Assembly: GCA_973895155.1 (NCBI GenBank)
Contig: OZ316893.1
Coordinates: forward strand, 17,242,770 to 17,306,769
DNA length: 64,000 bases
DNA from: Marsupella aquatica
Lineage: Eukaryota > Plantae > Marchantiophyta
Direction: 5' to 3'
Part shown: positions 32,763-59,093 of the stretch, piece after piece
Position numbering within the stretch: the stretch's first letter is position 1
Layout: each line of letters opens with the position of its first letter
The notes under the pieces: model-generated
Database searches by the model: none
What the model saw: only the letters and a program-made list of their open reading frames with translations
What the model was told of the DNA's origin: nothing
Position numbers and translations under genes: made by a program

Positions 32763-34208
32763 CTAATCTTGTTGGAGTAGTGCCGTCGGATCTGGTTGTT
32801 GAGCTCTGGTGTAGGTGTTGGTCTGCATAGCTTCTTGAATAGCATCCATATCTTGAGTGTGATGCCAATAGAAAGGTAGAGACTTCCGCTGTCGTTCAAG
32901 ATCAAGTACAGGAAGTAGCCTCCGATGTAGCATGGTATTTACCTTGCTAGCTTGCATGTAAATACCAATGAAGTCGTAAGTGCAGCAGGTAGCATGGTAG
33001 TTTTGAGGAAACTTGGCCATGAATATCTCAGAGTCTTTGGCAAGTGGTAGAAATGAAGTAACTCTAGGTAGGAGTTCACGCCACTTCAGAGTATACTCTG
33101 TTAATCGTTGAGAAGTAATGTTATTCCAGATCCTCTGCTTCTCAGTGACTGGAGTAACAAATTGTTGGAGGACAACGGGTTGGACTGGAGAAGCTTCATG
33201 ATTCATCTGAAATCTCCTCTTGGTTTGTCTTAAGAAGACAATGATGAACTCCATGACATAAGCAGGTAGATTCCCGAAATAAGCTAGAGCTAGATCTCCA
33301 TTCTCCAATACAAGGTGTCCAACGAGGATCATGACAGCAAGTACAGGGCAAAAAGACTCAGCTTCTGTCCAGATCTCATCCATTTGTGCTATCTCCAAGC
33401 GAGTGACCTCTAGCAGATGAAGTTTCAAGATATAAAGGCATTCAACTCTCTTCTTATGGTAATATTTCCAAAACTCCAAAATAGGAGGGGATCTAAGGTC
33501 TGAGACTCTAACAAACTCAGCAAACTGTTTAATACTTTCCTGAGGGGTTTTTGGATCAATATGCAGAGTAGGGATAAAATTGACTTGGCATGATTTGTCT
33601 TGATTGGGTGGAAGAGTGTCAGGGAAAGAAATGGCAAGATGTGCACCTGCAGGAGTGATCTCAAGTTCTGGAAAACTAGGGAAAAGTTGGTTTGGTTGGT
33701 TTGAAGGACTATAAGGAGAAGTAGGTGAATGGCTAGAAGGAGAACTAGAATAAGAAATGGGAGAGACTGATGCTGAGATATGATAGCGAACTGCAGAATA
33801 AACTTGCTTGGTGTTGCAGCCGAACATCTGAGTGAATCTGTGGACGAGATCTTCACAGTATTCCAAGTGCTGATCGTGGCTTGAAATACATGATAATCTA
33901 TACATAACCTCATCTAATACTTCGATCAAATGACCAGGATCACACTCCAACATCTTGCAAATCTCACCTACAAGATTAAAGTAGTACTCAGCTGAATGTC
34001 GGGGTGAAGTATTCACAATTTGTTGAAGATCTGTTCTCTGTGGTGGTAATCTCTCATCCATTGGGGATCCCATGATAGGTCGGGATTCTCAATGTCTGTC
34101 AGAGAAAGGTGATGTGTAGTCCTAGGGGCTTCTGATTGTCCTTCGGTGAATGGATGTTTTGATTGGATAGGACTCTGGGTGGGTGAATAAATGGAAGTGG
34201 GATTGTAT
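32763..34208 (-). pseudogene. Accessory ORF of solo LTR 3, C-terminal part (436 aa open)
   Basis: Homologous to fragments in units 1 and 2; its N-terminal part lies at 52441-53474 across the CACTA. Confidence 0.75.
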
Positions 34209-34229
34209 GGACACTAGAAGAATCCGAGG

Positions 34230-34570
34230 TGAACTGAGACCGCAATATGTGACTCATTTTGGCTCATGTGACTTCATTGTGACTCAACGTGACTTGACCC
34301 ACGCTGTGACCCTTGGAGTTGCAAAAGTTGAGACCAAAAAAGGGAAGTCACTATTGATACTGGGCTTTGCAACTTGCCTGATACCCATTTGTGACTGATC
34401 TGTGACTTTATTGTGGAGTCTAGCCTTGTTTCTACGTGACTGCAATATGACTTCAGCGAGTCACATCGAAAGTCACATACATGACTTACTCGCATTCAAC
34501 AACGACTACCTTGTGACCATTTAGTGTCACAGGAGAGACCAATGGAGACCCTGGCCCGCGTCACACAACA
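34230..34570. repeat. CACTA left subterminal repeats (GTGAC/GTCAC motifs, presumed TnpA sites)
   Basis: Many copies of gtgac/gtcac in both orientations next to the TIR. Confidence 0.7.
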
Positions 34571-35066
34571 GAACCATTTGGGACTCTATATACTCATGTT
34601 TATAACTAATAAGGTTCACATGCAAGTTATAACCATGACTAATGAACACAGAGGGACAGTTCATAAGGAGAGAGAGCACTCCACATTACAATACATAGAA
34701 ACCTGATGTTCTAACTTTAGAAATATAACACATTGAATACAAGAAATGAACATAGCATGAATGACATCCACATGAAATAAAATATCATATAAGCAGATCC
34801 TACATAAAACATTCATAAGAATTAAACACAATCACAATCTTGCTAAAAAATGAAGATCATTTGAATTCCAATGGAATAGTTTACAATGTGATCAATGTAA
34901 TTCAGACAAAACAGGAACTCATAATTGATGACTGCAGGATGAGATAACTGAAAGCACATGCATGATACTATGAATCTCCAAGAGGACATGATTCTTGTAC
35001 TGCTTTTTGACATCTAAAATCTACATAACATGACTCACACTACAAACAAATAATGACATGACATTG

Positions 35067-38000
35067 TTATGGATCCTCTATGAACTTGCTTGGCCATAAT
35101 ACCAAAGAACCTGCAGCATCTCCAAGTGTCTTTTGAGGAGGATCATCATTTGTGTTTGGAATGGGAAGGACAGCTTTAGTTTCACTAGTAATGTGACTTA
35201 CACTACTGAATAACCTGGGGGAATCCTCTTGCCATGGAACGTTGTGGAACCAACCTGCACTCTGCCAAATCCTACTCGTGTTCCACTCTCATCAACAGCT
35301 AACAAGCCACTTTGTCCCTCAGCATTAGGTGCTTTCCCCACTTCCACCTTAGATCTTTCTGCCAGCACCGTTCTTGGAGGTTTGTATGAAACCTTTGACG
35401 TGGCTTTGCTCCCACCAACAGACTTGCTTCGTGTGCGCATGCTTCCTCTCTTCACAGTAGTGAAGCTAGGCTCAGTAGGTTCCTCTGTTAGGACTGTCAC
35501 AGTAGCAGGTTCATCACCTGGGAGTGTCATACCAACTAACTCTTTGGTTGGATTTATCTCAACAAGAGGCACACCTGTCATTGAGAATGATACATTCTGC
35601 AAATCATTTATCTCTGCAATGGAGTCAAGATCTACATAGCATGAATCTGGCTCAATGGTATCATTGTCATGCTTGCTGATATCCTCATTTGCCCCAACAT
35701 TGATATCATCCACTCCCTTGCCAATGTCATCCTCATCCAAACATGGTTGACTGCCCTCTGTCAAACAAGTTGCTTGTACAGACTGCAACTTTGTTGCCTC
35801 TAAATTACAGCGAGTATTTGCCAGGTTCTCATACTTCTTCTCTGTAACACCTGTCTTATTCTCTATGGACACAACAACCACAATATATGTTACTGAAAAT
35901 AACACATTCAACAAACAATGTCAATTCAAACTATACATTTAATAATCATATCCCACACAGTTGTAAAGGCCTTACCTTCAAGCCTACATGTCGTTGGCAT
36001 GCCAGAAGAGTGCATCGACTTTGCCACCTCAAGTGGTGATGGTGGAACTCCTGCAAAATTGGAATCAATTTTATCTCTCACCGACACAACAGCTTCCATT
36101 AATGTCTTGAAGTTCACATGGAACAAGTCAGTCAATGAATTCAAACGTTCATTGATCTCTGGAAGACATGTTTCGACAGCCTTCAAACGACCACTTATCT
36201 CTGTAAGTGAAGATCCACCTCCCTACATGACACAGGGGTATAGGTTCAATCACTCCATATGAAATGTTGGGCAATATACACACAATCAATGTTATATACA
36301 GTGTACACCTGAAATTCAACGCAGGTCATTCAATTACCAATCAGAACTCATATAACTTACATGCTTGGAGGATTCAGATGCACCCTCTTGAGCTTGGGTG
36401 TTCACAATTTCAGCCCTCAACTCTTCTTTTGAAGGGCTTTGCCCCAATTGGGCTTTCTGCACATGCATGGCAAACACAAGTTATCGATCAATATTCAGGG
36501 AACATACACTAAAAAACAAAGTTTACATGTATGGGTTTACACTAAAAAACAGTACATAGTGTAGCATAAATTACATAGCTAGGCCATTCATTCTTACCAA
36601 ACGTTTAGCTGTCGGTGCAGTGCCGGTCCTTCTTGTCAGATTAGGGTTCTGAACACTCAACCTGGCCTCGGTCATCTGTGAACTCTTCTTTTTTGAAGCA
36701 TCTGTTACAAAATAAGCTACCAACCTTGCCCACACTTTATCATCACAACTGGCTGGTGGAAGCATATCTGGCTTCTCCCCACCTTCCTTCCAAGCCTTAT
36801 GCATTCTCCACCTCTCTTGCTTGATGATTTTACCTGCTGTACTCTCTAGGCAACCTATGTCCATGCCATCATCACTGCCCACATAATTCCATTTGGCAGC
36901 AACATTTTCACATACAGTCTTCCAATCTTTTGGATGCTGTTTTTTAAAATTAATAACACTCACATCTAACCAATGCAATACTTCAGCTTTCAAATCAGCA
37001 TGCCATCGGTTCTTGCGAGGATACTCAGCATCCACCCATTGTCTCTCATTCAACTTTACGTTCCCTTTCTTTGTCACCTCCCCTCGTGCACTACTCTCGG
37101 TAGTACTGGGCGTTGTATTGGCCACCCCTTCATTCACCCTACCTGGGGTTCTGAAGCCACCTGGGAAAATACAATGCCATTCATGCTTGAGAACTACATA
37201 CAGCAGAATGGATGACGGCAACATTCAATGCTTCACTTCAAGAAAAATTCTTCAAACATACATACCTGTAGCTTTGCTTGTAGATGCCTGTGCAGGGACT
37301 ACACTCTGAAATTGTTGCGACCCTGGACCACCTGTCCAGCCTAGTACAGGGGCCGGATGATGTCACTTTCTAGGTATGTGTGTGCAAACATATGTACTGA
37401 AAACTAAGTACAAACTGTAGGAAAACAACTGAACATTCACCGACATACCTGTCCCCCTTCCGTGCTGCATCTGCATAGGGGCATTAGTGAATACTTGAGT
37501 CGATGGTTCGACTGTCCAACCTGCACACATACATTTTCTATCATTATACATGTGCAGAATCCCCCCCACGTGAATGGACTCCAGATATAATGAGTTCTTC
37601 CATTGCTGACAAGATCAGACATTACCTGCCCCTCTTCCAGCGTTTGTAGGTACTATATTTTGATATCCTTGCCAATTACCTTCACCACCTTCCCAACCTT
37701 GTTCATTCCACGACCCACCACCATCCTCCCAACCTGGTTCAACCCATGTCTGTCCTTGTGGACATTGGAACTGATCATTACTAGCATTTGCCCAATCAGG
37801 TTGGGCAGAATCTGCATGCAATGGTAGGTGGACAGAATTTCATGTTGTCTGAATCCAATACATCCCAAACAATGTCAAAAATTGATATGCAGTCTGAAAT
37901 TCAGGAGTGCCATGCCTTCACAAAGAACTGGCATATAGATATATACTCACATCCCCATGGTTGAGGTGGACGTCCAAACCCACGAGACTGTGGGTTTGGA

Positions 38001-38850
38001 CCTGCTCTGCCTCTACCACGGGCATAACCTAGAGCTTGCCCCCTGCCATAGTATTGGGCACCAGCCTGGGATCTACCACTACTACCACCTCGCCAACCTT
38101 GATTAGAGGTCAGCCCCCCCTGCTGGTATGGTGCATGCACAGGCTTTGAAGGCAAAACAGAATTGGCAGGACGCTGCATCACATCACCAACTACAATGTC
38201 AGGAACTAAGCAAGGTACATATGTGTAGTACTGAACATATGAAACCTCCAAATAAGAGTTTTTAACTCAATACCTTGTTGGGAAAACTACTTACCTGTTT
38301 CTTTTGGGGCTGCTCTGCAATGTATTCATCTTCATAACCCCCATCCTCATCCATTTCCTCTGGAAAATACTCATCATCTGCATCTTCTTGTCTAGTGTCT
38401 GCACCCACCTGTGCAGCATCCATGTCATCTCTACATTCTGCCATTGTAGGTACCACCTTCTTGCTCAACCTGTCACTCCGACGCACAGGCCCAGAGATAG
38501 TGTTGGTCACCCTTCTTGTGTACTCCTTTTGTTTCTTTGAAAATGCTGTGGCTCTGCGACATTCCAATATGAGAATACAGTCACAATTTCAGTGCGACAT
38601 TGAACTATTCATGTCACACAAACTCAACGGAGGGGTGTAGTTGAGAATTGTTCCCTTACAATTCAGCCACATCCTTTTCCAGATCCAGTTCTGCGATTTT
38701 GGCTTTCACGTATGCTCGTTGTTCCATAGCTTTCCTTTCATACTCACACATCTCTGTGTCACTCTGTTCCATCCTATTGGACCACAAAAACATGTCATCT
38801 ATGGTCACCCCATATAACACAATGCAACCACAATGACCAGGCATCCATCC
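35067..38850 (-). pseudogene. TnpA-like multi-exon gene (PTTA/Transposase_24-like region and C-terminal Tnp1/En/Spm-like domain); exon borders approximate
   Basis: VWARLVAYFVTDASKKKSSQMTEARL (36571-37224); FHGKRIPPGYSVV, then after a frameshift LPIPNTNDDPPQKTLGDAAGSLVLWP; short GT-AG introns. Confidence 0.72.
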
Positions 38851-38928
38851 ATACATCTGTGTTGCTTCAGAATTACTTTATTACACATCCTTCCCCTCAC
38901 TAATGTCCATGCAAACAATTCACATTAC

Positions 38929-41900
38929 TCATGGCATAGGCACACTGTTGGCATCTGCATCTCTGAATTTGCCTCCTTCAGCAAATGCATCTACCCTTGT
39001 CACAGGAATGAAGTCCCCGCTATCATGAACTACAGGCACTTGGTCTGAACGCCGACGATCAAAGGCACTATGAGAGTGTAAATGAAACTCAAGGTTTGAT
39101 CCTTCCATCCGACGTTGCTTGGCCTGTTTATGACACACTACACGCCAACCTGGGGAGTCTTCCACATCCAGGAAGAAAGCTTGCTCCACCTGACTGGGAA
39201 ACACAAATGGCTCAGCCCATTCGGGCAATTTCCCTTTGAAATTGGCCAGCAAGAAACCATCATTGTCTCTCTTCATGGTAGCCCTGTTACCAAGCCAATC
39301 CTGCCGTACCCATGAACCTTTCATAAGAATCACAGGACTGGACACCGCCCCATTGTCCAGAGCCCATATGTCAACTAATTCTCCCACATATCCCATCTCC
39401 ATCCAGGCCCTGTCGTGATTGTGGCTCTGTTGCTCAAATACAATGATGAGCCCATAGTCATTCGTCACCCTATAGGCACTGTCACCATCCTTCACTCGAA
39501 AGTGATTCCCATATGCTCTCATCCGTTTGTAAGTCTTCACTTTCAGGCTAGGGGCATTAGACAGTAGGTAAACGTCTGCATCCATGTCTGGGTGGGTCTC
39601 GTGATGCTCTCTAATTGCCATTCTGATCCACTCCATGAAACCTGGAAAAGTTGTTCCTGTAGTGGAATGGGCCGCCTTCAATGACTCATACTCCCTGAAC
39701 AAACAACCACACAGCATTAACTTGGGTAAACATGAACAGGCTGAAGGAGAAAACCACACGCACACAACATTTAAGCTCATGAACTGGATTATAGCACATG
39801 TATGCACTCACTGTATCCAGGGTTCCATCACTACAGTGTTGTGCAATACAAAGTCATGTGCCAAGTCTCTCATAGATATGGTCAGGTTCTTTGTCGTTGC
39901 AGCCCCTTCCAGTACTTCACCTATCACCCCTTCCTCCTCATCAGAATTCCACACCCTGGTCTTCACATGCTCATATTGTGCTATGTATTCGGTCAGAAAT
40001 CCCAGAGTCTCATCCTTGATGTAACCTTTAGCCATGCTTGCTTCAGGTTTGTAATATGTTCTCACGTGACCTTTGAGTAGCTTCATGTACCGTTCCAAAG
40101 GGTACAACCAACGAGCACTCATAGGCCCAAATTGGTGTAGCTCTTCCACAACATGGACAAGTAGGTGGGTCATGACATCAAAAAATGCGGGAGGAAAATA
40201 AATCTCCAGGTCACACAGCACCTGAGCGACATCTTTTGTCAGTTGTGGGAAGTGTGTTTCATCCCAAACCTTCACACAAATACGACAAAACACATCACTG
40301 AGTCGCATGATCACATTACGAACAGGCTTCTGCAACAGGCCCCTCAGGCATAAAGGCAACACCTGTTGCATCAACATATGGTAGTCATGGCTTTTCATAC
40401 TACCAAGCTTTCTAGTCATGATATGCATCTTGAAAGCACTGCCATAGTTTGAAGGAACCTTCAAAGAACTCAACCTCTGCACAAATAGTTCCCACTCTGT
40501 GTCTGTCAGAACATAGGGCGCTTGGTATTTCAAGAGCACATCAGCTCTGTGGGCATGTGGCCTCAACCAAAGATGGGGTTTCATTCCCCTCTGTTCAAGA
40601 TCCAATCTCACTGAACCAGTGTCTTTCTCTCCACACAAGAATCTGAGTAGACTCTCACAAATATTCTTTTCAATGTGCATAACATCAATGTTATGTTTGC
40701 TTGGCTCAAACTCCTGCACCGTTGCAATGCAAAAGCGTTAGCAAATGCCTCAAGTTTAGTCTCTCTCTTCGAAATGAATGCACATGCTCTGAACCAAAAC
40801 ATGTATCCCAATTAGCATCAACTCCAAGAGGCTTACCCTCCAGTACTTGAGCTACAAGTCCAATATGCTCAGTCTTTTTACACCATATCGCTTTATTGGA
40901 TCACTCACTCCATCTTCCCTGCCCCCTCGTTTGATATAGTCATCCCTCAGTGCTCCCCACTGCCTGATCTCCTCTTTGGTCACTTGTGCCGGGGGTCCAC
41001 GTTGCTCAATGTCATTGCCAAAGTGTGCAATCAGTGCCTGTCTTTCTCTGTAAGGGTGATCTGCCTTCAGAAAATGACAATGGCCCATGTATATCACTTT
41101 CTGCAGGGCTCTGGAGTACTCACTGGTGACATTGCGCCCACAGATAGTACAAGCACAATATCCTTTTGTTGTTTGGCCTGATATCATCCCATGGGCTGGG
41201 TAGTCAGCTATAGTCAGAATGACGATGGCTCTAAGGATGAATGGGTTTAACCTCCCAAGCCTCTGTAGGACATCATATGTGAGAACTCCTTCCTCCCAAA
41301 GCTTTCTCAATTCCTCCACTAGGGGAGCCAGAAACACATCTATGTTGGCAGATACAACACTGTCTGGCCCTGGTATCAGTAGGACCATCAGAACAAAAAA
41401 TCGCTTTGTAGTCATCCAAGGAGGAAGGTTATAATTCAAAATAGTTACAGGCCAGCACAAAAATTTGTTGTTCTTGTCTCCAAATGGGTTTACCCCATCC
41501 AATGACAGCCCAAGTCTGACATTCCTCGGCTCAGCAGCAAATTCGGGATACATCTCATCTATGAGTTTCCACTGCCTTGAATCTGCAGCATGTCGTTGTA
41601 GCCCATCATCACTTTTCTTGTTAGTTGCCCAAGTCATCATCTCCGAGATGGCACGGCTTCTGAACATCCGCTGAAGTCTGGGAATGAGTGGAAAATGACG
41701 AAGTACCTTGGCGGGAACCATAGACTTTCCTGAGTTCCAATACCTGTGCTTCCCACACTTAGGGCATGTCAACGATTCTTTATACTCCTTTCTGAAAAGA
41801 ACATGCCCATCAGGACAGGCATGGATGGAATCATAGTTCAATCCAAGATTAGATATGCATCTTTTTGCCTCGTACATGTTCTTGGGCAAAATATTACCAT

Positions 41901-42501
41901 CTGGTAGCACAGTTGTTCGCAAGAATGCCAACAACTCAGAAACTAAAACGTTGGGGACATTGTGGTTGCCGCAAATGTTCAGGAACATGATGACAAATCC
42001 CAGTTTAGAACATTTGCTACCGGGGTACAAAGACTTCCTGCCTTCCTGTATTTGCAGGGGAGAGCCAAACATCCCATCATGCCCAAGGGTTTCCTGCCCT
42101 ATCTCAAACTCATCAAGAGGCTCTTCGACAGGGGGCACACTTGCATGTGCAGCCGTATCCTCTTCGTTGTCCAGCCCATCGTGAAATGCATCCAAGTCTT
42201 GGAAGATGTCTCTCACCATCTCTTCCACATGAATTCCTTCGTCACGTGGTGCTGCCTGAGCACCATCCCGTTGGAGAGCTGACAACCCATTGTCAAATGC
42301 ACCAGGCAGAACCTCGCTTGCCCGTCTTGCAGCATTGGTAGCATCAAATTCTAACCTCCACTCCTCATCGGAAGAATCTTCCTCTGCAGGATCATTCCAA
42401 ACTCGATGTCGTGGATCTCTTCCATGAACCGCGATATGCCGCCAAACCTCATTCAGACCCCTGGTACGGGATCCTTGGCAGATTGCACAAGGACATCTCA
42501 T
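38929..42501 (-). CDS. TnpD-type CACTA transposase (Transposase_21, DUF4218, DUF4216); at least 3 exons; in-frame TAG at 40852-40854
   Basis: MRCPCAIC, IHACPDGHVLF, VLRHFPLIPRLQRMF, EPRNVRLGLSLDGVNPF, IDVMHIEKNICES, MKSHDYH, WLYPLERYM, EPFVFPSQVEQAFF; introns at ~40836-40714 and ~39811-39696. Confidence 0.93.
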
Positions 42502-43173
42502 CCTACTGGCTCCTGAAAGTCTGGTTCGTAACCTTTCACGCTGCCAAGCTTATTATCATGGCGTGATATCCTTGTGGGATGATGCAAAGGCAGTGCCTAT
42601 GCCCTGGGCTGGGTTTGGGGAGGGTGGTGACTAGGGTGCATTGTAACAGGCTGGAAGCTCTGCAGTCATGGACAGCAGTGAACAGGGATGCCTAATGGTG
42701 GTATTTGTGTTCCATATATCCCTGACTGTATGTGCCAAAAGAGTTAACATAACGTGTAATAAATTCTCACAAACCCTAAACCACCCCAAAAGAAAAAAAC
42801 AGGTTTGCGAGTAGTGTACCTATTGTCAAGTGAATGACACAAAATTCCTCAATGTTTGAGGGTGTCACCACCTCCACAGCTATCCTCAAATGTACCGCCT
42901 CTGCATGTACACCCATGACCATATCAGAGTCCAATCATGTATAGTCATAGGCACAGGTGTGAGAGCGGTATCAGATATCTCACCGCCAAGATTTGAGCCC
43001 ACCCAGTACATTTACAGTGACACCCCCAGGCAGCAGGAAACAACAATCCGCCAACAGCAGAATAAGCCCAACTGCCACCAACCATAACAAGGTACATTAG
43101 TTCAAAGATCACATTTATTTCAATGATCTGATTTATACAAAAAAACTTGTGTCCAAACTGATGCTACTACTCC

Positions 43174-44052
43174 TCACTCTGATTCAGAATCACTAATGAC
43201 CCATTCCTCACTTGTTGTCTCATAGTCCTCTCTATAAGGATCCTGACCCTTCCGTGGCCAGGCCTCAAAAAGATCATAGTCCATTGGGTTTTGACGCTTC
43301 CCAGCTGCTACTGATTCCACAAGCCAAGCATATGAAACCACAAACACATTATGGGACATGACATAAAAGCGAATGTGTCCCTTCCCAAACTTGCGGCAGG
43401 CTTTGGGATATGACTTAGTAATGACATGAGTGGTGTCCTCTATTATATTCTCCTCCACTGTCCCACCTAGGTCAAGCACCGTGGACTTGTACACTTTGCA
43501 CTTAACCTCTCCAATTCCCGCCTCCACAAATACCATGCTCAGCCCTTTCAGAATGGGGGTTGGTTGCTTCTTCTCCTCAGCCAACATACTCTTCAGCCTT
43601 CTAGAGCTCTATCCTTTGTTGAGTTCAGGTCCATATTGGACATCAGCAAGCAGTGCCTTTGCTTCCCAGACTTCTTGTTCAGCCCAAGCTGATGCAGTAG
43701 CTTCTTCATCCTCCCACAACTCATATTGCTCAGTATCATGTACAATCTGATGTGCTATGGAATCTGTGATCCAAGAGGCCTCAACTACTTTTAGGCCTTG
43801 CTTAGTAATTGCAGAATTCATGTAGGACCATGACCACTTCTTTATCACTGATAGCCATGTCCCTGCAACAACATGTGTAGTCTCTGGAGTGATGTCCTGC
43901 ACTATAGTGCCATGGAGCTCAGATAATCGTTTCTGTACAGTTGGCCAATGCACTTTGGTCAACCCATGTTGGCCATGGACCAAAATGGCTCTGACCCCTG
44001 TAAACACTGCTGGGTGGTCACACTTTCTACGTTTCCCAGGCTCCATGTACAC
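43174..44052 (-). pseudogene. Tandem-BRCT protein (~290 codons) with a single in-frame TAG at 43609-43611
   Basis: Two repeats of G..v...i...TTHVV..(K/F)VV..(S/A)W..(D/E)S. The 147-aa and 137-aa ORFs are in frame, 7 sense codons apart. Confidence 0.8.
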
Positions 44053-44638
44053 ACACCCTACGTGATGACAATGAATTTTGGAAGAATGGGTTCACCTGAC
44101 AATACAAGGACAACAAAATTCCTGTGTTTTGAGTTGATCTGGCCCATTGGTGCTCAGGTCCGATTTTGATAGGTACAAGGGATATGTGAACAATACGTAC
44201 TAGGCACCTGCACGGATGCAGGACATTGTTTGAATATATACTACAAAATCCATATCGAAGGTGAAATGAAGTGCAACCAACTTGTCATGGCACATACATA
44301 TTTTGTTGTAAAGGAGGATACGTTCAATGACAAACTTATAGGGCAATTTGATTAATTGCATGCCTGATAATTTATACGCTTACAACTTAGAAGTCCTGTT
44401 TTAATTTAGCAGTCTGATGAAAGTGTTTATGAAAATGACCACTCAGCCTAAATACTTCCAAGAAGGCTTGTAAGGATAAGTTTTTATAGGCATGTACCCA
44501 GCCACTGACGCCAGAGCACAAGATAAGTGCTGCCTATATAAACTCGCCTACCCAACTCCTTTTCAAAATTGGAATCTCTGCAATCTCAAAAAATAGTATA
44601 TCCACATCAGGTGCACTGTGCATGTACAATGTTCAGCT

Positions 44639-45319
44639 TCACAACCAAGATATGTGATCTCTCATAGGAGTGCGCGAGGTAGGATCAATGGCATGGCGAT
44701 GACAATAAAATATCCATTGATCAACACCATGTGCAGAGTGATCATAGATTTCTCTATCACAAGCATAACCCTCTGCTTGACGATCTTTCAGGCAATGATA
44801 GTGCCACATGGTGGGACACCTAGCATAGTGGACTATGTCAGTCCAGTACTCATGATCATGCTCACCACATGCCTTGCACCTATGAAGTGGGCAAGCTGTG
44901 GCATGAGCAGGCAAACACTCAAAACAGAAAAATCTCACACAAAAACGGTCTGGACATTTCCTAACATTTGCTGCAGCATCAACACAGCCCTCATAGGACC
45001 CCAACTTCCCACACTGTGCACACTTAGCCTGCTTCTCCAAACAATCAGTGCACATCCAGTCTCCTTGGTGTGTTGACGGGAGGCCCACCCCTGGACAGTT
45101 GTTTTCTGCAGCAAGGTCAGACTCCGGGTTGAGGTGGAAATGCCTCATGCAAGGGCCCTCACAAATGACCAGGCCCCCACCATCGTCACAAATGGCACAA
45201 CAATGAGCTGCCTTCTGGAAAATCTGACTTGCAGAGAAGTTAGTAGCATCTGCCCCAAGTACACCTGTGTTTCTCACCTCTGTCACAGGCTTTTTGGCTT
45301 GAATTTTAGGTCGTGCCAT
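44639..45319 (-). CDS. Stand-alone EDM2-like PHD-finger protein (226 aa, no intron in the ORF)
   Basis: CAICDDGGGLVICEGPCMRHFH..C..C..CGKLGS..CPLHRCKACG..RCPTMWHYHCL..IFYCHRHAID..TPMRDHI follows the EDM2 PHD block as I recall it (CAICDNGG..CEGSCLRSFH..CPLHKC..YCQEHEID..TPVRDHV). Confidence 0.85.
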   Translation of the reverse strand: MARPKIQAKKPVTEVRNTGVLGADATNFSASQIFQKAAHCCAICDDGGGLVICEGPCMRHFHLNPESDLAAENNCPGVGLPSTHQGDWMCTDCLEKQAKCAQCGKLGSYEGCVDAAANVRKCPDRFCVRFFCFECLPAHATACPLHRCKACGEHDHEYWTDIVHYARCPTMWHYHCLKDRQAEGYACDREIYDHSAHGVDQWIFYCHRHAIDPTSRTPMRDHISWL

Positions 45320-45330
45320 GCCTGCGCATG

Positions 45331-45474
45331 AGATAGACTCTACAATTTAGCAGAATGCACAGAAAGTAATATATATTTAGCATTTAAGGTACAAAGGCAT
45401 TTAGATAGACTCTACAATTTAGTAGACTGCACAGAAAGTAAAATATATTTAGCATTTAAGGTACAAAGGCATTT
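45331..45474. repeat. 72-bp tandem duplication just upstream of the PHD ORF
   Basis: agatagactctacaatttag...gtacaaaggcattt, twice. Confidence 0.9.
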
Positions 45475-46089
45475 GCTACTGCAATGAATTGGAATGGCCA
45501 CACAAGGATGCAGAGCAGACATACTTTTGGTATGTTGAGCCCACACACAAACCTGATCCCCTAATACAATTGCTCCACCAACACCTTAATTTTAATTGTG
45601 GCTATGATTCACCAAAGGAGATCTGCAACAACATTTCATGCATTTGAATCACATACAATAGTCGTGACATGTAAAATAGGCATTCTTCGAAGAGGATTGG
45701 TATGAAGCAGTGTCATAAGGGTTGAAATTTATACATCCTAAATAGGCTATGATAGTGGCTGAGACAAATAAGTGATGCATAAATCACATTTTACAGGTTA
45801 TCACATGGCCCATTAATTCATTGAACGTTGCAATGTTCACCAGGTTAAAGCAGTCATGAAAGCAGTCTTTCAATAGAGACTTTTATGCGAGTTTGCTAGC
45901 CTCTTAAATTAGGATATTTTGCTTAGTGCAGGCATAATAGGATAAGTTATGTATTGTTGACCCTAAACCCTGGACCCAAAATTGCTCATACATCAAAATT
46001 TTAAGTAAATATCCTCTGTGTTGAAGTCAGAGTGTTAAGCTATAGGTCAATGGTATCTGGTCTGTGCATGCGGTGTGACAAGTGGTCCT

Positions 46090-46554
46090 CTAGAGCATGT
46101 GATCCAAACATGTGTAGACACCAAAGTCACCGGTGGTGGGGTCTGGGAGGGCAGGACAAGTGACATCACCAGGCACACTGCAGGATGGCGAGTGGTTCCA
46201 GATGATACATTGTGCTCTGTGCAAAAATCGGCATCCAAGAGAATGGTCATCCAATTCTGGGCCAGAAGCCCTACAGGCAGGACAGTCATATTGGCAACTG
46301 TGTACACACCCTCGACACCTAATTTGTGGCGGGTCATGTACAAGAGACACAAATATCAAGGATGTCGGGAAGGGTACTGAAGCAGGTACAGGCCGACTGT
46401 AGTTGTTCCTGGAAACAACAGGGTACTCAAAGTATCATGCAGATTGGGCTGGAAGGATCCCAAGTCTGACATACTCAAGGTGCAACATCTCTGCCTTGCG
46501 TGCAAGTCGCACATGTTCAGCGTTGCGGGTCCTCACCATAAGTGTTGCTTTCAT
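46090..46554 (-). pseudogene. Possible small Cys/His-rich ORF with one internal TGA
   Basis: MKATLMVR..QSA*YFEYP..CRGCVHSCQYDCPACR..HSLGC in one frame; family not recognised. Confidence 0.35.
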
Positions 46555-47549
46555 TGTGATGTCCTCTGTTCACGTCCTTTGATGAGCAAGGTGAGCAGGA
46601 GGTCGACTTGCCTCGCCAACAGCAACCAACCTAAACTAATCAGTTCCCACTCATTGTCTTGGTTCCAACTACAGGTCATAGTATACACATAGCATGAAAC
46701 GTGCATAGTACATATTTGATTCTGAGTTTATGAGTTTCCTAAGACAAAGAGCTTGGTGATAAACCCATGTTCTCGACGGACATGTATATCAATCATATTA
46801 AAATCCTGTTTTTTCATCCAGAAAGACCGAAAGTCTCACCTTACAGGTTGCAGCAGAGAGAAAATTCACTGGTTGTCGTGTTGTGCAAGTGAACCTCCAC
46901 TGATGCCCCCGGTGTAGCCCCTCAGATGCAGGTGACACTTACCAACTCCCAAGTTGCCTGGTCTAACAGAAAATGCTTATATCTTCAGAACTTTATAGAG
47001 CAAGTACATGATCACATACTTCTGGATCTATTCATATTTGGAACTCTTGCCAACTACAACTCCCATTATGCACAAGCTCACATCAACAGAGAAAGATACA
47101 GAATGCATACTTACTATGGCTCTAAGCACCTTCACTACCTTGTTGAACCCAGTCCTGAAGTCTTTTCAGCATGTTTGTTGTGCTGTCTCCTTTGGCACCC
47201 AACACCTTAGTCCTTGATGTAACAGAATGCAATTTTACAAGTTAGATGCTTTGGAACCTTCTATGGTCTTAGCTGAATTGATGTCATCGTAAGTGGTGAA
47301 AGACAAGGAAGACGAAAGTTGGTTGAAGAGCTGTGGACAACACACTAGCATGAAGTGCTTCAACCAATCCACTGCCAAACGGAACTCTTACACAGTCACA
47401 TTCTTTCAGTAAACAGAAACTCAGTCAAACTTCATAATCAAAGTACAGACTCTGAAGGACCAAAAGAGGATGTTGTGAGTTTCTCTGTTGTTTAATGTGT
47501 TACCCTTCTAGTTTCGAAGTTAGCAAATGCTGAATAATGTGTCTACCAG

Positions 47550-47891
47550 ATCTTCGAAAAGAAGCCCACCACAATTAAGAACTTCGGTATCTGGGTGAGG
47601 TATCAGAGTCGTACAGGTTATCCCAACATGTACAAGAAATATCGTGATACCACATTGAACATCGCTGTAGAGCAGATGTATGATGAGATGGCTTCTTGTT
47701 ATAGAGTTCGGTTCCCTTGCATCCAGATCATCAAGACTATGACAGTCCCTGTCTCTCTGTGCAAGCGAAAAAGTACCAAGCAGTTCCATGATTCAAATAT
47801 CAAGTTCCCCTTGACGTACCGCAAGATTCAACCTCCATCGCGAAAGCTAAAGACAACTTACAAGGCCACCAAGCCCAACACATTTGTTTGA
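47550..47891 (+). pseudogene. RPL18A: Captured terminal exon of 60S ribosomal protein L18a (eL20)
   Basis: [53 protein letters not shown], directly after an intron acceptor (ctaccag); no upstream exons seen. Confidence 0.9.
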
Positions 47892-49716
47892 GTAGTGCGG
47901 GTGCAGGTTCCCAATTTTGAAACAATTTGGCTCATTTTATGTCCCGAGGGACTCCAGGAGTTTATGTATTGAGTTTCTAGTTCAAGATGCTTAATATAAG
48001 GAAATTCAATTATCACTTCGTTCCCAACTTCTATTAATTGAATATACACAAGCTGGAAGCAAGAAGACAAGCCACAATCTAGCATCTTAGCCAAACACAA
48101 TCGTCCTGACAAAGCAAAACTCAGCTGGACAGAAGTCACTCGGATCCACAAAAAATTGAAGATTCACCTCCAAGCCGGAGGCCGATCACTTCAGTACAGC
48201 AGCTTCTGGACGGAACAAACTCTGCTCAGCCCCACAGAAACACAAATGTTAAGGCTCCAAGTCAGAGCTCACAAACAGAAACTCAGATAAATAACATTCA
48301 AAATCTGTCCAGGTTTGTGCAAAGTGTACATATTCATTCTTTTGGAATGAACACGCAATGCATACATCGCCTAGACACAGTCATTATAAATCATTGGGCA
48401 ATTGGGGACCACTAAGCAGGTGTGTTCCTATTTCGAGGCTACAGGAAAGGATAGAGTGACACCAAACTGAAGAGTACACCAAAAGAAAAACAGCAAGAAC
48501 CAAAGTCAATCATGTGTGGATAAACTGCACATGGGAAGTTCCCCTAAAGAAGCATCAGTTGCTAACATTGTCACCCGAACCACACCCAGTTTATTACCTC
48601 AATGTCTTCAGCCTCAATATCCAATCCTCAGCCCCCTGGTGCTTCCGTGTTTGTTCTGCAAATTTCTGTGATGAAATAATTATTCAATACATTCAATAGC
48701 AAAGAGAACTCAATCACAAAAGAAAAATAGTTAGTGTGAATGCTAATTTCTCAACACTTAACTAAATTCAAACCACCAATTCAAGTAGTAAGTTTCAAAA
48801 ACTTGCCTTTACATGAAGAGAAACCAATTGGCCATGCATGTTACTAAAGCAATAAACAAATAATTAGGCTCAACCCCGGGCTCAACACACAGGCAAACTA
48901 CTCAAAACATGTTGCTGAGAAGTAGCATTTTTTGAATGTCAGACTATGTGTAAGTGCCATGATCGTGCTCCTACGTTTCACAAGGAGGGCTGGCCCGAAA
49001 GGGAGAAGCAACAATGTGGAGTCTATACACGTAGCACAAATCCCAGTTTAGAAGGGTGGATGAAGTTCAAACAAGAGTTCAGAACTTGCCATTTGAGATT
49101 GCCAATCTGAACTTCACATTTAGACAGGACTTCATCCAGTTCAGGAGTTCAGATAGGAGTTCAGACAATCTGAAGAGGACTTTGGACTTGAATGAGGGAC
49201 AGCGTGGCCATATAGTTATCCTTGTGGCCTTCAGCTGCGTGTCTCAGGCTGAATTTCACTTTCCAGTTTCGAGAGTTCTGAAGGTCTAGTTTTAGTAACT
49301 TCCTCCTGACTCGACTTGGGAGCATTCTCCCTATTTGCTAGCTTGTAGTTAGCTTTGACTCCTGTGAGCTTAGTTGACGACCCTCTTGAGATATTAACAA
49401 TTAGAACAAACACAAGTTGTCAAGACAGATTCCACCGGAGCAAAAAGTCCAAAATCAGGTGAAAGAAAACCTAAGGAAAGTCCATAAGAACGAAAGTAGG
49501 AAGGCAGGTGCACGGGCCACCGAGAAAAGTAAAGGATGCATGTGATTAGTGGGGAGGGATCTTAGCAAAAACAGGGGAAAGCAAGGGAACTTGCTGCTAA
49601 AATCAGTTGAACGATTGCACGGTTCCTATAAATTTAGTGGACCTTAAGGCCGTCTGTTCACCCCCCCACCCCATCGCCAGAGCACGGGGCACAAGGCATG
49701 TTCTGATACAGGGAGG

Positions 49717-51490
49717 ATTGAGCAGGCGATTGTAATAGCAGGCACCAGGCGATTGAAGGAAGCAGCATTCGGCAATGGACCTAGGCAGCTCGTGAATTTT
49801 GCTCAGCAGCGATGTCACCTAGACCCTAAACACGCAATGCATACATCACCTAGACAACTTGATCATTTGGATTCAGCTGACAGAGGTGGACATCAGATCA
49901 GGGTCCACGAGATCAGGGTCAGCGCCTCTTTACCCCCTAGCGGGTAGACTCAGAAGACAATCAAGTTTGGAAGGATGATCGACCTGTTACACAAAACCCA
50001 CCAGATTGCAATTCCAACCTAGCTGAGACTCTAGTGCTCGGGACAATGTATAGTTTGGATGGGAATATAACATTTTGCAAAGAGATTGGACAACAACATC
50101 AAAAATCCATAGGGCAATACAATAGTGGATGCTAGAGCTATCTAGGTAGACAAAATCGCGGGGAAGAATGATTTCTCCAAGTGACTTCAACTACCTTCAA
50201 TGCGTGGTGTCAGTTCCCGCCTGTAGACTCCCTCCTCCGAAGTTGCAAGAGCCAGCAATCAAACACACTGAAACAAAGTGGGTGGCAATTTCAGTATGAA
50301 ATCGAGTATTTGTGCTACTGCAATGAACAGAGTAAGGCAATGTAGTGGTCATCGTAGCGCCTCCTGAGAAGAACATTCATACACAGTGTCCATATCAAAC
50401 TCATGAAGTGGCAGAAAGGATAGTGTCGCCACAAGCGCAAACTCCCGACAGGTTTAAGCTGCAAAAAACTAACCCCTCCAAATGTCTCCAGCTTGCGACC
50501 ACCTCCAATCGACTGTAGCTATGACCGCAGGTCCTCCCCAGCCGCAACTCTGGCAAGTCCTTCCCAACTAGAGGTCATTGATCATAGCAGCTACAACACA
50601 CATCCAACAGCCTTCCGTCACCAAGCAATCGTAGCACCACTTGAAAGAAAAACATGTTTGCGCGCAGCAGCCTCAATCCTCCACATCTCTGACCCAACCC
50701 GACAACCCTAAACAACAAGACCGGAAAAGAGTATTCTCGCAAGCAGAGTGTTCGGCACTTGGTTTCTCTGCAACTCTCTAGCTCCCCATCTCAGTCCTCC
50801 GCCACACTTGCGACGAACAACATATTGAGCAGCTCGCGATTGCAGCAATAGTAGTTTGAGCAGCAGTTGATTGAACTCCAGGCGAATGAGCTCAGGGAGA
50901 AATGAGCTCCAGGCGATTAGGTGCGCGATTGAGCAGGCGATTGTAATAGTAGGCAACAGGCGATTGAAGGAAGCAGCATTCGGCAATGAACCTAGGCAGC
51001 TCGCGAATTGAGCTCAACAGCAATGTCACCTAGACCGTAAACTCTTCGCAGCAATGGAGTTCCAGTTCGGCAACAATGCAGCGCAACAATGCTAGCTACA
51101 ATAGGTTGGGCACTTACAAAGAAAGTCGCGATTGGCTCGGGGATCGGCTCCTTTGTCCTGGTCACTCACCTGGCCTAAACACTTAACTCCAGGTGAATGA
51201 GCTCCAAGCAATTGGGTGCGCGATTGATTTGGCAATTGTAATAGCAGGCAACAGGCGATTGAAGGAAGCAACATTTGGCAATGGACCTAGGCAGCAGGCG
51301 ATTGTAACAGTAGGCAACAGGCAATTGAAGTAAGCAGCATTCGGCAATGAACGTAGGCAGCTCGCAAATTGAGCTCAGCAGATTTCGCCCATCACCTTTC
51401 TCTTCATAGCAATGGAGCTCAAGAGTGCAAGCGATGTGACCTACACCCTAAACTCTTCGCAACAAAATGGAGCTCGGCAGCGCAACATTG
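49717..51490. repeat. Dispersed ~70-110-bp imperfect repeat, about 4 copies
   Basis: caggcgattgtaatagcaggcaacaggcgattgaaggaagcagcattcggcaatggacctaggcagctcg at ~49720, ~50935, ~51230 and ~51295. Confidence 0.85.
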
Positions 51491-52219
51491 GCGGGAAGGA
51501 AAATTGAGCAACACACATCGGGGTTGGGCAATGCTCAGCCAGGCTCCCCTCACCCTAAGTCGCGACGAGAAGGGCCGACTGTTGTTGTTGGGGGCCTAAA
51601 CCGGTTCCGCCTTGTATTTTGCCCCCGAGTACTCCCTGTATTTTGCCCCCAACTTCACAAAAGTCTATGATTTGCCTAAGCCCCATTTTCCTTTGTGAGA
51701 ACCAAAGGACTTAGGCTGACGTTATATGTGGGGTGAGTGGTTATGAAAAAACTTTGAACCACCCCCTTTGGTGAAAAACGGGGCCAAATGGTTAGGTATC
51801 AGTAAACATGACCATTATGAAAAGTATAATTTTTTAGGGTAAGGTATTCAAGACCTGATCATATTGTGAATATGTGTCACATTTAGGTTGGACTTATTGA
51901 TTTTGACAAGCATGCATTGCTTGTAAAAAATATAAAGACAAAGCATTGCATGGACGTACTTATTGAATAAAAGTAGGTGTTAAAATAAGGTCTTGACAAA
52001 CTGAAAAACCATGCGTTATCGTGCAAATCTTGTTTATTTTTTGTCGTGGAAAGGTAGTGATAAGATAATAATTAGTGGCTGCAAATCTGAGTTAAGCAAG
52101 TTTAGAGGAGGTAAGAAAATTAGGATTATCCCAAATGGTATGAGTTGGGTGGGGTCAAATGGCGTTAGATTGTGGAGTTAAACCCTAAAGCTGCACTACA
52201 TATATTCCGCTCTATTGTA

Positions 52220-52425
52220 CACGGAGTCACTTATATAAGTTCATTCTTGTTGGCTTAACTTAGTTAAAGTTATAACTTCCCCAATAGTTATAAAAATGAC
52301 TTCCCCAGGAATACTCCTGAACTAAGCCCACAACTTGTAACTAAAGTGACTCCAACAATCTAGGAGTCATAAATTCTAACCGGTCTCATTGGAGTCACTA
52401 GCGGCAGGGTCTCAAAATGGGTCAG
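52220..52425. repeat. CACTA right subterminal repeats
   Basis: Repeated ggagtcac/gtgactcc/tgactt motifs and ggtctca, matching the left end. Confidence 0.6.
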
Positions 52426-52440
52426 TTTCTTCTAGTGGGA

Positions 52441-53474
52441 GTAATACAGTTATAGGCTGGCGAGGGTTGAGTAACAGAAGCAGTCCTTAATCTATCTACA
52501 ATAGGGAGGATTTCTTCTGGATCACAAGTCAGCATTCTGGACAAACTATCTACTATATCCTGATTAAAAACAGCCTTCCCATCATCAATCAATTTCTCTG
52601 GATGATTATGTTCACTGGCAGGGATAATAGGGAGAGGAGTGTGGTCGGTTGGACTACTATTAGTATGGCAAGGTGTAATCTCAACGTTAGGATTAATATC
52701 CTCATCCATAAGTTCCGGAGTGGGTGGCATGATTTCTTGGTGACTGGCTTCTGATGTTTCCTCCATTCTCAGATCATCGAGTCTTGAATCAGCCTCCGAA
52801 TGTTCCACATCTAATTCCTCCAATAGTGCAATCCTTTTGAGCTTCTCCTGTGGGAGTAGACAGTCTCCATACCAGTAAAGCTGACTGAGGTAAGCTGGGA
52901 GGTATGTAGGCTTTTAATTCTGTACAACATTGATTTGACTGAGGATAGTGTGTCTCAGTAACAATCCCCAATTAACTTCAGCAAGTCCTTTCCATGAAGT
53001 AACAAACGTGTTTGCCAAAGATACAGGTACCATATATGGTCGAGTGGGATGAAAAATTGGTACCAGAAACTCAAGGATGATCTGGAAGGTATAATCAATA
53101 CATTGATTAAGCTTCCATCCAGCTTTTGTATTTCTCGTCCCAGCAAACATTGGATCAGATAAAGTACTCTTTCTAGATTGTAAACCACAGCCTTCTGATG
53201 AACAACTAAAAGCGTCGGCCACGAACTCTAAGTCCTACTTCTCAGGATCTGCTCGAACAGTCTCCTAAAATGCTTCTGGAATTTGTGACCCATCAGCGAA
53301 CTCGCGCAAGTAGGTAGGGCACACAGAAGACCACGGAATGGATAGAAGTTTTCCTAGGTGCATGACTTCTAGAGCATTGGTCAATAACATCAAATCCCTC
53401 TCCAGTGCGGGGTACTTCATTGGTACAGCTCTAGGAACAGGGAAGTCGCAACTACTCTCATCCACGCCCGCCAT
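52441..53474 (-). pseudogene. Accessory ORF of solo LTR 3, N-terminal part (plant-mobile-domain-like)
   Basis: MAGVDESSC..LLSIPW..YLREF..VADAF..FAGTRNTKAGW..C..ILEFLVPIFHP; stops and frameshifts. Confidence 0.75.
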
Positions 53475-54001
53475 GGCAAGTTGTAGCTACGGTTCTTGAA
53501 GTTGAGTCACTATTGCTACAGAAATCTAAGTCGCAAAACATTGGGGCGTATTGGCGTGATCGCGCATGAGCGTATAAATGTCACAGCGCTCAAGCGTCTC
53601 TTCGTATGGGCGTGAACGTCGAGGCCTTTGGTAGCAAACAGGGAAGTGAAAATGTTCGTCGCGAGCAGGTGGTCCAGTAAGTCACTCTGTCACTCCCTCC
53701 TCATCGTCAACGGTTACTTTCAGTTACCGGCAGGGTGGGCTGTGTATAAGCGTCTGGGCGCATCAGCGCATAAGCCTCTATGTGTCTGAGCGCATTAGCG
53801 GATTAGCTGCTACTGTGACTCCGATTTGACATGGCTGTAAAATGAACTAGTTTTAGGAGACTACAGGGATGTACTTGAGGATGGCTTAACTACTCTAATG
53901 CTCCTAATTAATATAGATAACCTGAGTTGAATCACTACTTATCTTAAAAAGTTGAAAAGTTTTAAATTTTCACAGAAATTCCGAATAACTGCTATATCTC
54001 A

Positions 54002-56479
54002 ACATGTTTGACTAAGAGGGAACGACCGGTAAATGAAAGCATCTTGTTTGTCCAAGTGGACAGACGAGCACCAACTTTGTCTAAACAGAATTTATGGAGT
54101 TGTTTCGTCCGCAATCCAACACTTAGCGGGGCCCCAAGATACTTCTGCACCTCACCTCCCCTACTCTCCAGACACCCATACTCAATAAGCCACCCAGGGG
54201 GATGGTCCAAGGCCAGCGGGATCACAACAGATTTCTGCAAATTTAGTCGTGCCCCCGAAGCCAGCTCATAACATGACAACGCCGAGGTAGCCTCCTTGAA
54301 GGCAAACTCAAAGGCAGGGATAAACATTCCCACATCATCCGCAAATAACTGGTAACAGATTGTCAGTCCCTCATAAATTCTAATACCGCTCAACCTACCC
54401 CAAGCCATCTCCGCATCCAGAAAGTCCATCAGTAGTTGCGTTGAGATCACAAAGAGCAAGGGCAATAGGGGACATCCTTGGCCGACTCCCCGTTGCAATT
54501 CAATAGGTCCAGAGCAGAAACCGTTCACAAGAATCTGTGAGGAGGCCTGGCTAAGAAGAGCTTGGAATAGCTTAATGACCCTGCCACTAATGCCCAGCAA
54601 GTGCATTGTCTCCCAAATATACTCGTGATTGACTCTATGAAAGGCTTTTTCAAAGTCCAACTTCAGAAAAAGTGCTTCTTTCTTCTGGCTGTGCACCCAG
54701 TCACAAGCCATCCATCCTAGGGAGATGTTCTCTAGTATGTGACGGCCAGGGATAAATCCAGTCTGTTGTGGACTAATCATTTGTTGCAATAGTGGTTTCA
54801 GTCGAAGAGCCAGAATTTTGGCAATGATCTTATACACTGTGTTTAGCATTGTGAGTGGTTGCCAGTCTTTAAGGAACCGTTTGTCTGGTTTCTTGGGAAT
54901 GAATTGATAATCCCCTCCTTGACCCCCCTATCCAGATCACCAGACAACCAGAAAGCTTGAATCATTTCCACTAAGTCCAAACCAATAAAGTCCCAGCAGG
55001 CCCGGTACACCTCCGCTGTCAATCCATCCGGTCCAAGGGATTTGTCCCCCGGTAACAGCCATAAAACTTCTTTTACTTCCTTCAACGAGGGCAGGGTCTC
55101 CATCCGCCTGATCTCCCCTGCCGAAAAAGACCCCCTTGTATGTTGCAGCAGCCTGGACCGTTCCCTAAGTTGCTCCGCCCTTACCTCCTGGGTGACAGCA
55201 GGAGGTGAGTATAAGGCCAAGCACATTAATTGAACCTCCTTCAAGATAAGCCTGGGCTCCGTTACCACAGTTCCATCCTCCCTAATCAACAGCTTCATTG
55301 CTTCCCATGCTCGTTTCGCACCGACCATGGCAAAGAAGAATTTTGTAGATTGGTCCCCTTCTCCGAGCCATTTCACCCGGGCTAATCTGCAACCTCTATT
55401 GGCCTCCTCAAATTCTGAAGCGTGCAGTGCATCCTCCATAAACACATAGTCACAGATATCAGACTCAGTCTGTGTGTCCAAAATAGCCGTTTTAAGCGCC
55501 TGCAGTTTCGCTCTTAGAAATGCCAATTCTTCCTCCGCCTCCTTTGGGCGCTCCTGAAGCTCTTTGTATGTGCTTCTCAATTGCAAACTGGCCTTGGCAA
55601 AACAAAGAATAGGATCCACAAACCCTCGCCTTCCCTCCCGCCAGGCCCTTTCTAGCTGATCCAAGTCCTCCTTTCGCCTAAGAAGAGCCGGATTGGCCTT
55701 AAAAAATCTTGCCTTACCTCTCTCTCCTGCTGAACCGGTCCCCATCAGCCAAATCTTGAGCAAGACCGGGTCATGATCCAAGAGAGCCGATCCTCCATCA
55801 TGCCGCAGCTCCACAAGTTCCCCCAGCCACCAACCATTGCCACTGATGTAATACCGATCAAGACGGGATTGTCTCCATGCCCCATTCCACAATCTTTGCC
55901 AGGTAAATCTCGCCCCCACTGCCCCACCTTTAAGTATAAATGCATTTTCCAAGTCAAATCAAACTTTAGAAATCGCCAAAACTCAGCCTCCCGGCCCCCA
56001 ATGAGAGATGAGCTGCCCATTGCATCCTCCCTAAGTTCAGTCATGTTAAAATCCCCACAAAATATCCAATTCACGGCGGGTAGCCCACACTTGAGGTCGT
56101 ACCACAACACAACTCGCTCTTGAGCTGAATTAGGAGCATAAATTGACACCAAACCCATCATACCTCCCTCTGTCTCCAATATCACCCAAACTGCTCTTCC
56201 CCGTTCCAGTTGCCCCGATTCCACCACCTTCAAATTTGGGTGTACCAGAAGAGCAGTGCCTCCCCTACCTTCGTCAGGTGCCGCAGACAAAAATTGGTAA
56301 GTTGGGAGGATGGCTCTCAAAGCCATGTCAAGCCAAAATTGTTTGGCTTTCACCTCTTGGAGCGCCAAAACACTTAATGGTGCCCGCACTGATTTGACCT
56401 AGTGCTTAACTACATGTTTCCGATTTGTCTCACATAACCCGCACACATTCCACAACGCAATTGAAAGCAGCTCACCCAT
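54002..56479 (-). pseudogene. LINE ORF2 N-terminal part: AP endonuclease and reverse transcriptase
   Basis: WNVCGL, LALQEVK, SIYAPN, GDFN, SRLDRYY, DHDPV, GPDGL, QQTGFIPGR, KLDFEKAF, LFADD; frameshifts. Confidence 0.93.
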
Positions 56480-58660: not shown

Positions 58661-59093
58661 CTCTCACCCATCAATCCCGATTGAGCAACAACAGAAATGC
58701 AACCAGGTTTACATATGTTCAAACTTGCCAGACTTACCTTTTGCGAGCAGTGGGCGGCCAAACAGTATCCTTCCCCCTGCTGCCTTTCTTCCCGTGTGCC
58801 GCAGTGAATTGCTCAACCACGATAACAGTGTATCCTAGTGTGGCAGCCCACAATATTCCTATTACTCAATCCTCCCTCCTCCTCTCTATCACCCTCATGG
58901 TTAGCAGCCAAGATCCATGCCCATAGCCCAGCACCAAGTAATGGCTTAACCTTCTCCCCCGCGGTACCGCTTCTCCCTGATTCCTCAACCAATCCGTCCC
59001 GCAAAAAATTCCATGGAGCAATGACAATGCTTCATCGCATCATCTTGAACCGACAACAATCTCCCCTCCTTATTAGAACCCCCCTCAAGTCCG

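Follow-up and report, generated by a model that had tools for sequence, protein, structure and literature searches.

The question raised by this locus is why a CACTA transposon should have kept, as a gene of its own, the reader block of EDM2, a host factor that enables gene transcription through heterochromatic transposons. Within the window, by which the whole 64-kb stretch analysed is meant, a 226-aa open reading frame (ORF), here called mini-EDM2, was found to be a gene of EDM2-family origin that occupies a place in a same-strand cassette and is constrained in both its frame and its zinc ligands. The preferred reading, to which a probability of roughly 45% is assigned, is that mini-EDM2 serves a multicopy CACTA family as a conserved accessory gene standing on its own, and that its product likely binds H3 tails and counters silencing.

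The ORF lies within an 18.2-kb element of CACTA type (34212-52437), both ends of which read CACTAGAAGAA inward (11/11 match, patchy beyond) and which is flanked on each side by the 3-bp target-site duplication GGA. The features of the element, from left to right, are the following.

34209..34211, no strand: left target-site duplication GGA
34212..34222, plus strand: left terminal inverted repeat, CACTA type, 11/11 match to the other end
35200..38700, minus strand: TnpA-like gene, multi-exon, limits approximate; Transposase_24 match, other exons presumed
38929..42549, minus strand: TnpD transposase gene with introns, recognised by Pfam-type domain matches; likely premature TAG at 40854
43174..44046, minus strand: tandem-BRCT gene, about 290 aa, BRCT match (E 2e-13) in two stretches, in-frame TAG between its two domains
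44639..45319, minus strand: mini-EDM2 gene, with basic H3-like N-terminus, flexible linker and triple PHD-type zinc block up to the stop
45290..45319, minus strand: M-A-R-x-K start of mini-EDM2, fitting the published H3 N-terminal mimic motif (putative function)
45331..45474, no strand: tandem duplication, 72 bp, directly upstream of the mini-EDM2 ATG
46090..46539, minus strand: Cys/His-rich gene, about 150 aa, one in-frame TGA, single relative
47538..47891, plus strand: eL20/L18a fragment, C-terminal two thirds, antisense to the element genes, frame still open
49716..51465, no strand: dispersed internal repeats, 60-116 bp, in the 5' non-coding part
52427..52437, minus strand: right terminal inverted repeat, on the side where the element genes have their 5' end
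52438..52440, no strand: right target-site duplication GGA

On the minus strand the genes follow one another in the order Cys/His-rich gene, mini-EDM2, tandem BRCT, TnpD and TnpA-like, which places mini-EDM2 upstream of the transposase; with BRCT and Cys/His-rich genes flanking it on the same strand, mini-EDM2 is therefore one gene of a three-gene cassette. The TnpD gene, downstream on the same strand, carries Transposase_21 (E 2e-67), DUF4218 (E 5e-27), DUF4216 and Transpos_assoc domains, and the Transposase_24 match of the TnpA-like gene (36574-37224) is weak, at E 6e-4 and below the curated cut-off. The tandem-BRCT gene gave weak matches to the BRCT of BRCA1. For the Cys/His-rich gene no Pfam family was found at 46090-46539; the one relative it has, at 54% identity, reads Trp where this copy has TGA, and its fold, predicted from two sequences only, reached a pLDDT of 34, too low to be used. 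The 5' part of the element, about 6 kb on the minus strand, is mostly non-coding, and no F-box-like gene was found in the element stretches scanned. The captured piece comes from the host ribosomal protein eL20 (L18a), corresponds to its residues 63-177 and is very close to plant proteins; by its sequence it is a raw capture of the Pack-CACTA description, unlike mini-EDM2.

Mini-EDM2 itself is open without interruption from ATG to TGA (45319..44639, minus strand), and shuffling the surrounding 8.3 kb 300 times never produced an ORF of at least 226 aa (longest 223, mean 98). The translation and this control bear out the ATG-to-stop frame that an earlier, sequence-only reading of the locus had put forward. 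Its placement of the ORF inside an element bounded by inverted repeats and target-site duplications, on the transposase strand, also agreed with the limits given above and with the strand of Transposase_21. Its statement that the gene has no intron held for the coding part of mini-EDM2, but a possible splice acceptor may lie 2 nt before the ATG. The neighbouring BRCT and Cys/His-rich genes and the H3-like N-terminus had escaped that reading. Elsewhere in the window the ORF gave no further match.

That a reader is encoded separately, just upstream of the transposase and beside a tandem-BRCT neighbour, would suit the main rival explanation equally well, in which mini-EDM2 is a targeting cofactor. 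The reader would then bind both chromatin and TnpD/TnpA and steer or license excision or insertion, much as the PHD of RAG2 does for RAG1, while the BRCT protein would read DNA-damage phosphorylation where the DNA is broken; RAG2 and RAG2L PHDs specify chromatin binding, according to the accessible text of PMC10629977. The surroundings of this copy can be read in the same sense, as the CACTA element was inserted into an older repeat (the stretch 24377-26524 matches both flanks in order) and the rest of the 64-kb window is full of retroelements, with Copia, Gypsy and LINE coding sequence. The element genes are depleted in CpG (observed/expected 0.19-0.37) and not in CHG, and the insertion site is presumably heterochromatic. 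However, one insertion site is uninformative on preference, because gene-poor sites are also what selection leaves, and a role in targeting is regarded as unlikely, if still to be taken seriously.

The assignment to EDM2 made by the sequence-only reading was upheld by alignment. Residues 41-225 of mini-EDM2 align to residues 225-432 of Arabidopsis EDM2 with 28% identity (E 1e-23), the two-and-a-half atypical PHD repeat and its ligand pattern are present, and the EDM2-type protein Mp2g00350 of Marchantia is 32% identical. Over the 11 host-type blocks compared, which were taken from land plants, identity was 31-37%. A profile built from six short relatives matched 542 proteins, 228 of them at E < 1e-10; among the best 150 of the 542, the short relatives stood on top and were followed by long EDM2-type proteins. 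Twenty matches were looked up, and the named ones were EDM2 or PHD proteins from Arabidopsis, Neltuma, rice, Selaginella, Diphasiastrum, Ceratopteris, Marchantia, Riccia, Calypogeia and algae. In a Closterium gene model among the matches (P0143) a protein kinase is fused with an EDM2-type PHD block, which may be a model artefact. That the ORF consists of just the PHD block was likewise correct, every other EDM2 domain being absent from its 226 aa; RFD-like, acidic and methyltransferase-like ELP regions were found neither in the ORF nor in the flanks scanned, and a search by shared words for longer fusions of the ORF found none, which is weak evidence. The block was rightly described as compacted, because it spans 183 aa in mini-EDM2 as against 195-217 in the 11 host-type proteins.

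The zinc ligands were assessed over the 26 alignment columns in which 85% or more of the 14 hosts have Cys/His. The module had been called intact with most ligands kept, and 24 of these 26 columns are indeed retained, but position 165 is Tyr in this copy and Cys in 7/7 other short relatives and 14/14 hosts; in one sequencing run (X2), Cys accounted for about 99% of the depth at this position. With stops in the neighbouring cassette and transposase genes and one zinc ligand lost, this copy of the element is therefore likely inactive.

AlphaFold2, supplied with 29 sequences, gave a mean pLDDT of 85, with 81-96 in the core and a flexible stretch at residues 1-25. Structural matches of the predicted fold were PZP and NSD PHD-C5HCH readers, the top one being NSD3 PHD5-C5HCH with an H3K9me3 peptide (Z 5.7, rmsd 2.7, 84 residues); no EDM2 chain was among the PDB search matches. 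Mini-EDM2 is thus predicted to form a compact multi-zinc fold most like the NSD-type PHD-C5HCH readers. With Z scores under 8 the resemblance is modest, and a common fold shows no function. The PHDs of EDM2 bind H3K9me2 and other marks, according to the accessible parts of PMC7472560 and PMC7529245.

It is conceivable, although rather improbable, that mini-EDM2 is a selected module with a non-histone ligand, either another protein or a nucleic acid, as for some PHD-type zinc blocks; a DNA-binding PHD is in print (PMC5636791, in the text accessible). Several changes point in that direction. Across the short family the His at column 98 is lost and the His at column 132 is replaced by Cys. A new conserved His precedes the first Cys by two residues, and the block has undergone deletion of about 20 residues. 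Acidic residues before the first PHD finger often bind H3K4, and the 15 residues preceding the first finger contain no D/E in mini-EDM2, compared with 8-10 in five orthologues; six paralogues have 2-5 such residues there, and nine short members 0-3. As the acidic stretch has gone, the specificity of EDM2 cannot be assumed and may therefore have been lost. Against a non-histone ligand, the first finger keeps the D-x-G-G and C-[DE]-G-x-C motifs, as in the H3-binding AIRE PHD1, and the top fold matches are H3 readers.

Five relatives of near-equal length (217-245 aa) are 81, 75, 52, 36 and 36% identical to mini-EDM2 and have the C-terminal end in common. In total 20 short members were aligned, about half of them truncated or frameshifted, while those of full length kept their ligands at pairwise identities of 33-80%. 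In a quick tree of 60 rows, 13/13 short rows fell on one side of a branch with an SH-aLRT of 95, and in a tree of 35 rows, which omits 25 long, partial or redundant ones, 9/9 short rows grouped together with a support of 100. Alignment and phylogeny show that mini-EDM2 originated from the EDM2 family, as the PHD block of such a host protein, and that it belongs to an old conserved family. In both trees the short clade lay nearest to liverwort EDM2 paralogues whose C-terminus is the PHD block (support values of 93 and 81, neither of them starred). Going by these relatives the host is probably a liverwort, and the donor may have been such a paralogue; grouping of the short clade with true EDM2 orthologues was not rejected (p-AU 0.38). 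The distant short relatives presumably reside in transposons. A metagenome scan yielded 11 loci with matches of 26-46%, of which those tested gave much higher scores with host EDM2-like proteins, and no matches to the transposase or BRCT regions were found at these loci.

Parts of the cassette were found in 9 of the 11 sequencing runs listed, and at 80% likeness 1,933, 4,339, 221 and 67 contigs from four runs lay on its 4.1 kb, although read or contig depth is no copy number and depth differences between genes were not used for ranking. All 30 cassette bins were covered in three runs, and in the two richest (1,933 and 4,339 contigs) the share continuing into unlike sequence was 0. So many variants of the cassette mean that the family is multicopy and its gene neighbourhood stable; in the runs searched, no contig crossed the whole 4.1-kb stretch or joined mini-EDM2 to the transposase. 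A single copy nearly identical to a host EDM2 exon was thus not what was observed. The view of the sequence-only reading that mini-EDM2 is not a raw captured fragment was similarly supported by its own start and stop, its identity of only 31-37% to hosts, and its 13 short relatives in one clade.

Might the gene nevertheless be neutral or nearly neutral cargo that was captured and spread with a successful element? The element does carry a raw capture, the eL20 fragment, and the cassette of this copy is decaying. The indels, however, avoid the ORFs: none of 11 events (among 12 listed of 34 rows) fell in the three ORFs, which make up 49% of the stretch (p ~6e-4), and no indel at a share of at least 15% lay inside the mini-EDM2 ORF. 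Substitutions are less decisive. Forty of 59 rows were listed, 39 of them in the mini-EDM2 ORF, and the 14 synonymous ones among these 39 do not amount to a significant excess (p 0.06-0.13). Among the listed variants of intermediate share, 12/28 were synonymous against an expected 24-27% (p 0.02-0.045; hand-computed ratio near 0.4-0.5) and none lay at a host-conserved ligand; the nine near-fixed differences, 2/9 of them synonymous, are likely this copy's own mutations. The share cut-offs for these subsets were chosen after the table was seen, and two rows from one low-depth run only, both non-synonymous, belong to neither. The synonymous excess being weak overall and post hoc in the subset, selection among close copies is therefore modest, so that evolution among the copies is not plainly neutral with respect to indels and the 12/28 subset but leaves only a modest synonymous signal. 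The conservation of frame, ends and ligands among members at 33-45% identity is, as sequence evidence, the stronger sign of selection. In addition, the Marchantia and Riccia EDM2 orthologues are 70-71% identical over the same block, whereas mini-EDM2 reaches 31-37% with all hosts compared. Neutral cargo is accordingly held to be quite improbable. That the short proteins are ordinary host genes, with only this subfamily borne by a transposon, is very improbable indeed, for although short host EDM2-like proteins exist (e.g., a named 344-aa rice protein), those of the rice type group with flowering-plant EDM2 and not with the short clade, the six short-clade clusters looked up were single-member Logan records, and many short-clade members are broken.

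Alongside the zinc block, the N-terminus bears on how the product might act. Mini-EDM2 shares five of its first nine mature residues with H3 (A1, R2, K4, A7, K9). The published H3 mimic motif consists of the initiator M, a small residue, R, any residue and K, and is found in 48 of about 21,000 human proteins (PMC8166343, accessible text). The mini-EDM2 ORF fits this motif. Of the 20 short members, 9 in all do so from their called start and a further one from a second Met, and the motif occurred in 3/134 other profile matches, all three of them short EDM2-like proteins. A start of M-A-R-P is also found in the three most distant of the five near-length relatives, in one of them from a later Met. 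Because the rows had been picked by the motif, a shuffle control of the likeness to H3 is circular and was left uncounted. A plain nuclear-localisation or AT-hook-like origin of the N-terminus is just as possible, since motifs like G-R-P-K precede the PHD block in liverwort paralogues. In a predicted complex of the N-terminal 30 residues with the PHD core the score was 0.02, and a PDB search with the N-terminus of one relative gave no match. Three short EDM2-like proteins outside the transposon clade (P0036, P0040 and P0063) also begin M-A-R-x-K, possibly by convergence; P0036 groups with flowering plants.

Under the preferred reading of mini-EDM2 as an anti-silencing accessory gene, its product, predicted to bind histone H3 tails, would occupy marked nucleosomes or compete for host readers or writers, because it is without a catalytic, RNA-binding or sequence-specific DNA-binding domain. 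The H3-like N-terminus might aid such competition, and silencing of the CACTA element would thereby be relieved, allowing it to stay active in silenced chromatin. Mini-EDM2 would not be expected to rebuild the EDM2-ASI1-AIPP1 complex by itself, and the aid to full-length transcription of the element put forward by the sequence-only reading is conjectural, as is H3K9me2 specificity. A bolder and doubtful extension is that bryophyte DNA transposons trade a portable reader-plus-histone-mimic gene, whose product would grip marked nucleosomes while its N-terminus, as a mimic of the H3 tail, diverts host methyltransferases and readers, and which would form, with the tandem BRCT, an all-reader chromatin toolkit. 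If true, this would be histone mimicry by a plant transposon.

Mini-EDM2 resembles Arabidopsis EDM2, which acts in the AAE complex with ASI1/IBM2 and AIPP1/EDM3, in its two-and-a-half atypical PHD block, ligand pattern and closing motif, but EDM2 has 1297 aa as against 226, and only mini-EDM2 is transposon-borne with an H3-like start. The RFD, acidic, PGR, methyltransferase-like and proline-rich parts of EDM2, described in the accessible text of PMC7529245 and in Pfam, are all missing from mini-EDM2; the histone binding of EDM2 and its role in AAE are treated in PMC7472560, PMC7529245, PMC5364540 and PMC3632883, as far as these texts are accessible. The liverwort paralogues of Marchantia (Mp1g03210), Riccia (R1sor_003797) and Calypogeia (CAM6087769) likewise have the PHD block at the very C-terminus, a non-acidic lead-in and a similar helix before the first finger, but they are proteins of 620-770 aa with 33-37% identity to mini-EDM2 over the block. 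The element shares with CACTA/En-Spm and Pack-CACTA transposons its CACTA ends, 3-bp duplication, TnpD gene and one raw host fragment, and may share a TnpA-like gene as well. It differs in that the transposase is preceded by three additional conserved genes, of which one encodes a chromatin-reader module.

Among known accessory genes, RAG2L has a PHD of a lineage unrelated to that of mini-EDM2, with an H3K4me-type finger and a Kelch core that binds the transposase. RAG-like transposons are nonetheless similar in placing a separate PHD-bearing gene beside a DDE transposase (PMC10629977, accessible text). The VANC gene of VANDAL elements is also a plant DNA transposon accessory gene, with a proposed origin from a host chromatin regulator, and is named together with the NDX-like domain of TnpA in the accessible text of PMC13547354. 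VANC is, however, Mutator-borne and, with KIU/VANC covered in the accessible text of PMC13317346, recognises DNA motifs of its own family, whereas mini-EDM2 is a predicted histone reader; no VANC/MAIN-like domain was found in it, only PHD-type families matching. The red-algal Plavaka (EnSpm) elements are CACTA-superfamily transposons of 17-19 kb with a three-gene cassette (PAG1-3) that moves between transposon families, but that cassette encodes writers and erasers (SET, adenine methylase, 2OG oxygenase), and the term 'PHD' does not occur in the accessible text (bioRxiv 10.1101/2025.02.11.637652), as opposed to the predicted readers here. Full-text searches of the accessible, largely open-access literature brought up no transposon with an EDM2-type reader, and a transposon-borne EDM2 miniature is apparently undescribed. 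Transposon anti-silencing is understood for few plant systems, chiefly VANC, and with mini-EDM2 experiments could tell if a captured reader acts against silencing or directs insertion, and if transposons engage in histone mimicry. Its size of 226 aa suits expression, peptide arrays and crystallisation, through which the structure of the EDM2 block could be seen for the first time.

Elsewhere in the window, a CACTA...TAGTG pair at 28219/32782 was considered as element ends and rejected, being part of a separate foldback of 4.9 kb (28062-32939) with inverted arms of about 1.7 kb at about 80% identity; its middle holds, by eye, a reverse-transcriptase-associated zinc-finger-like ORF. An unannotated long ORF associated with Copia is present in two copies, at 24377-26533 (plus strand) and at 32763-34088 / 52422-53417 (minus strand), the latter split by the CACTA element. 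Direct repeats of 4.6 kb, 99% identical, lie around a Gypsy gag-pol region (5513-10157 and 16697-21365), each with long ORFs of 845-1121 aa of no clear Pfam family, and a decayed L1-type LINE with DUF4283, endonuclease and reverse transcriptase adjoins the element at 53992-59359 on the minus strand.
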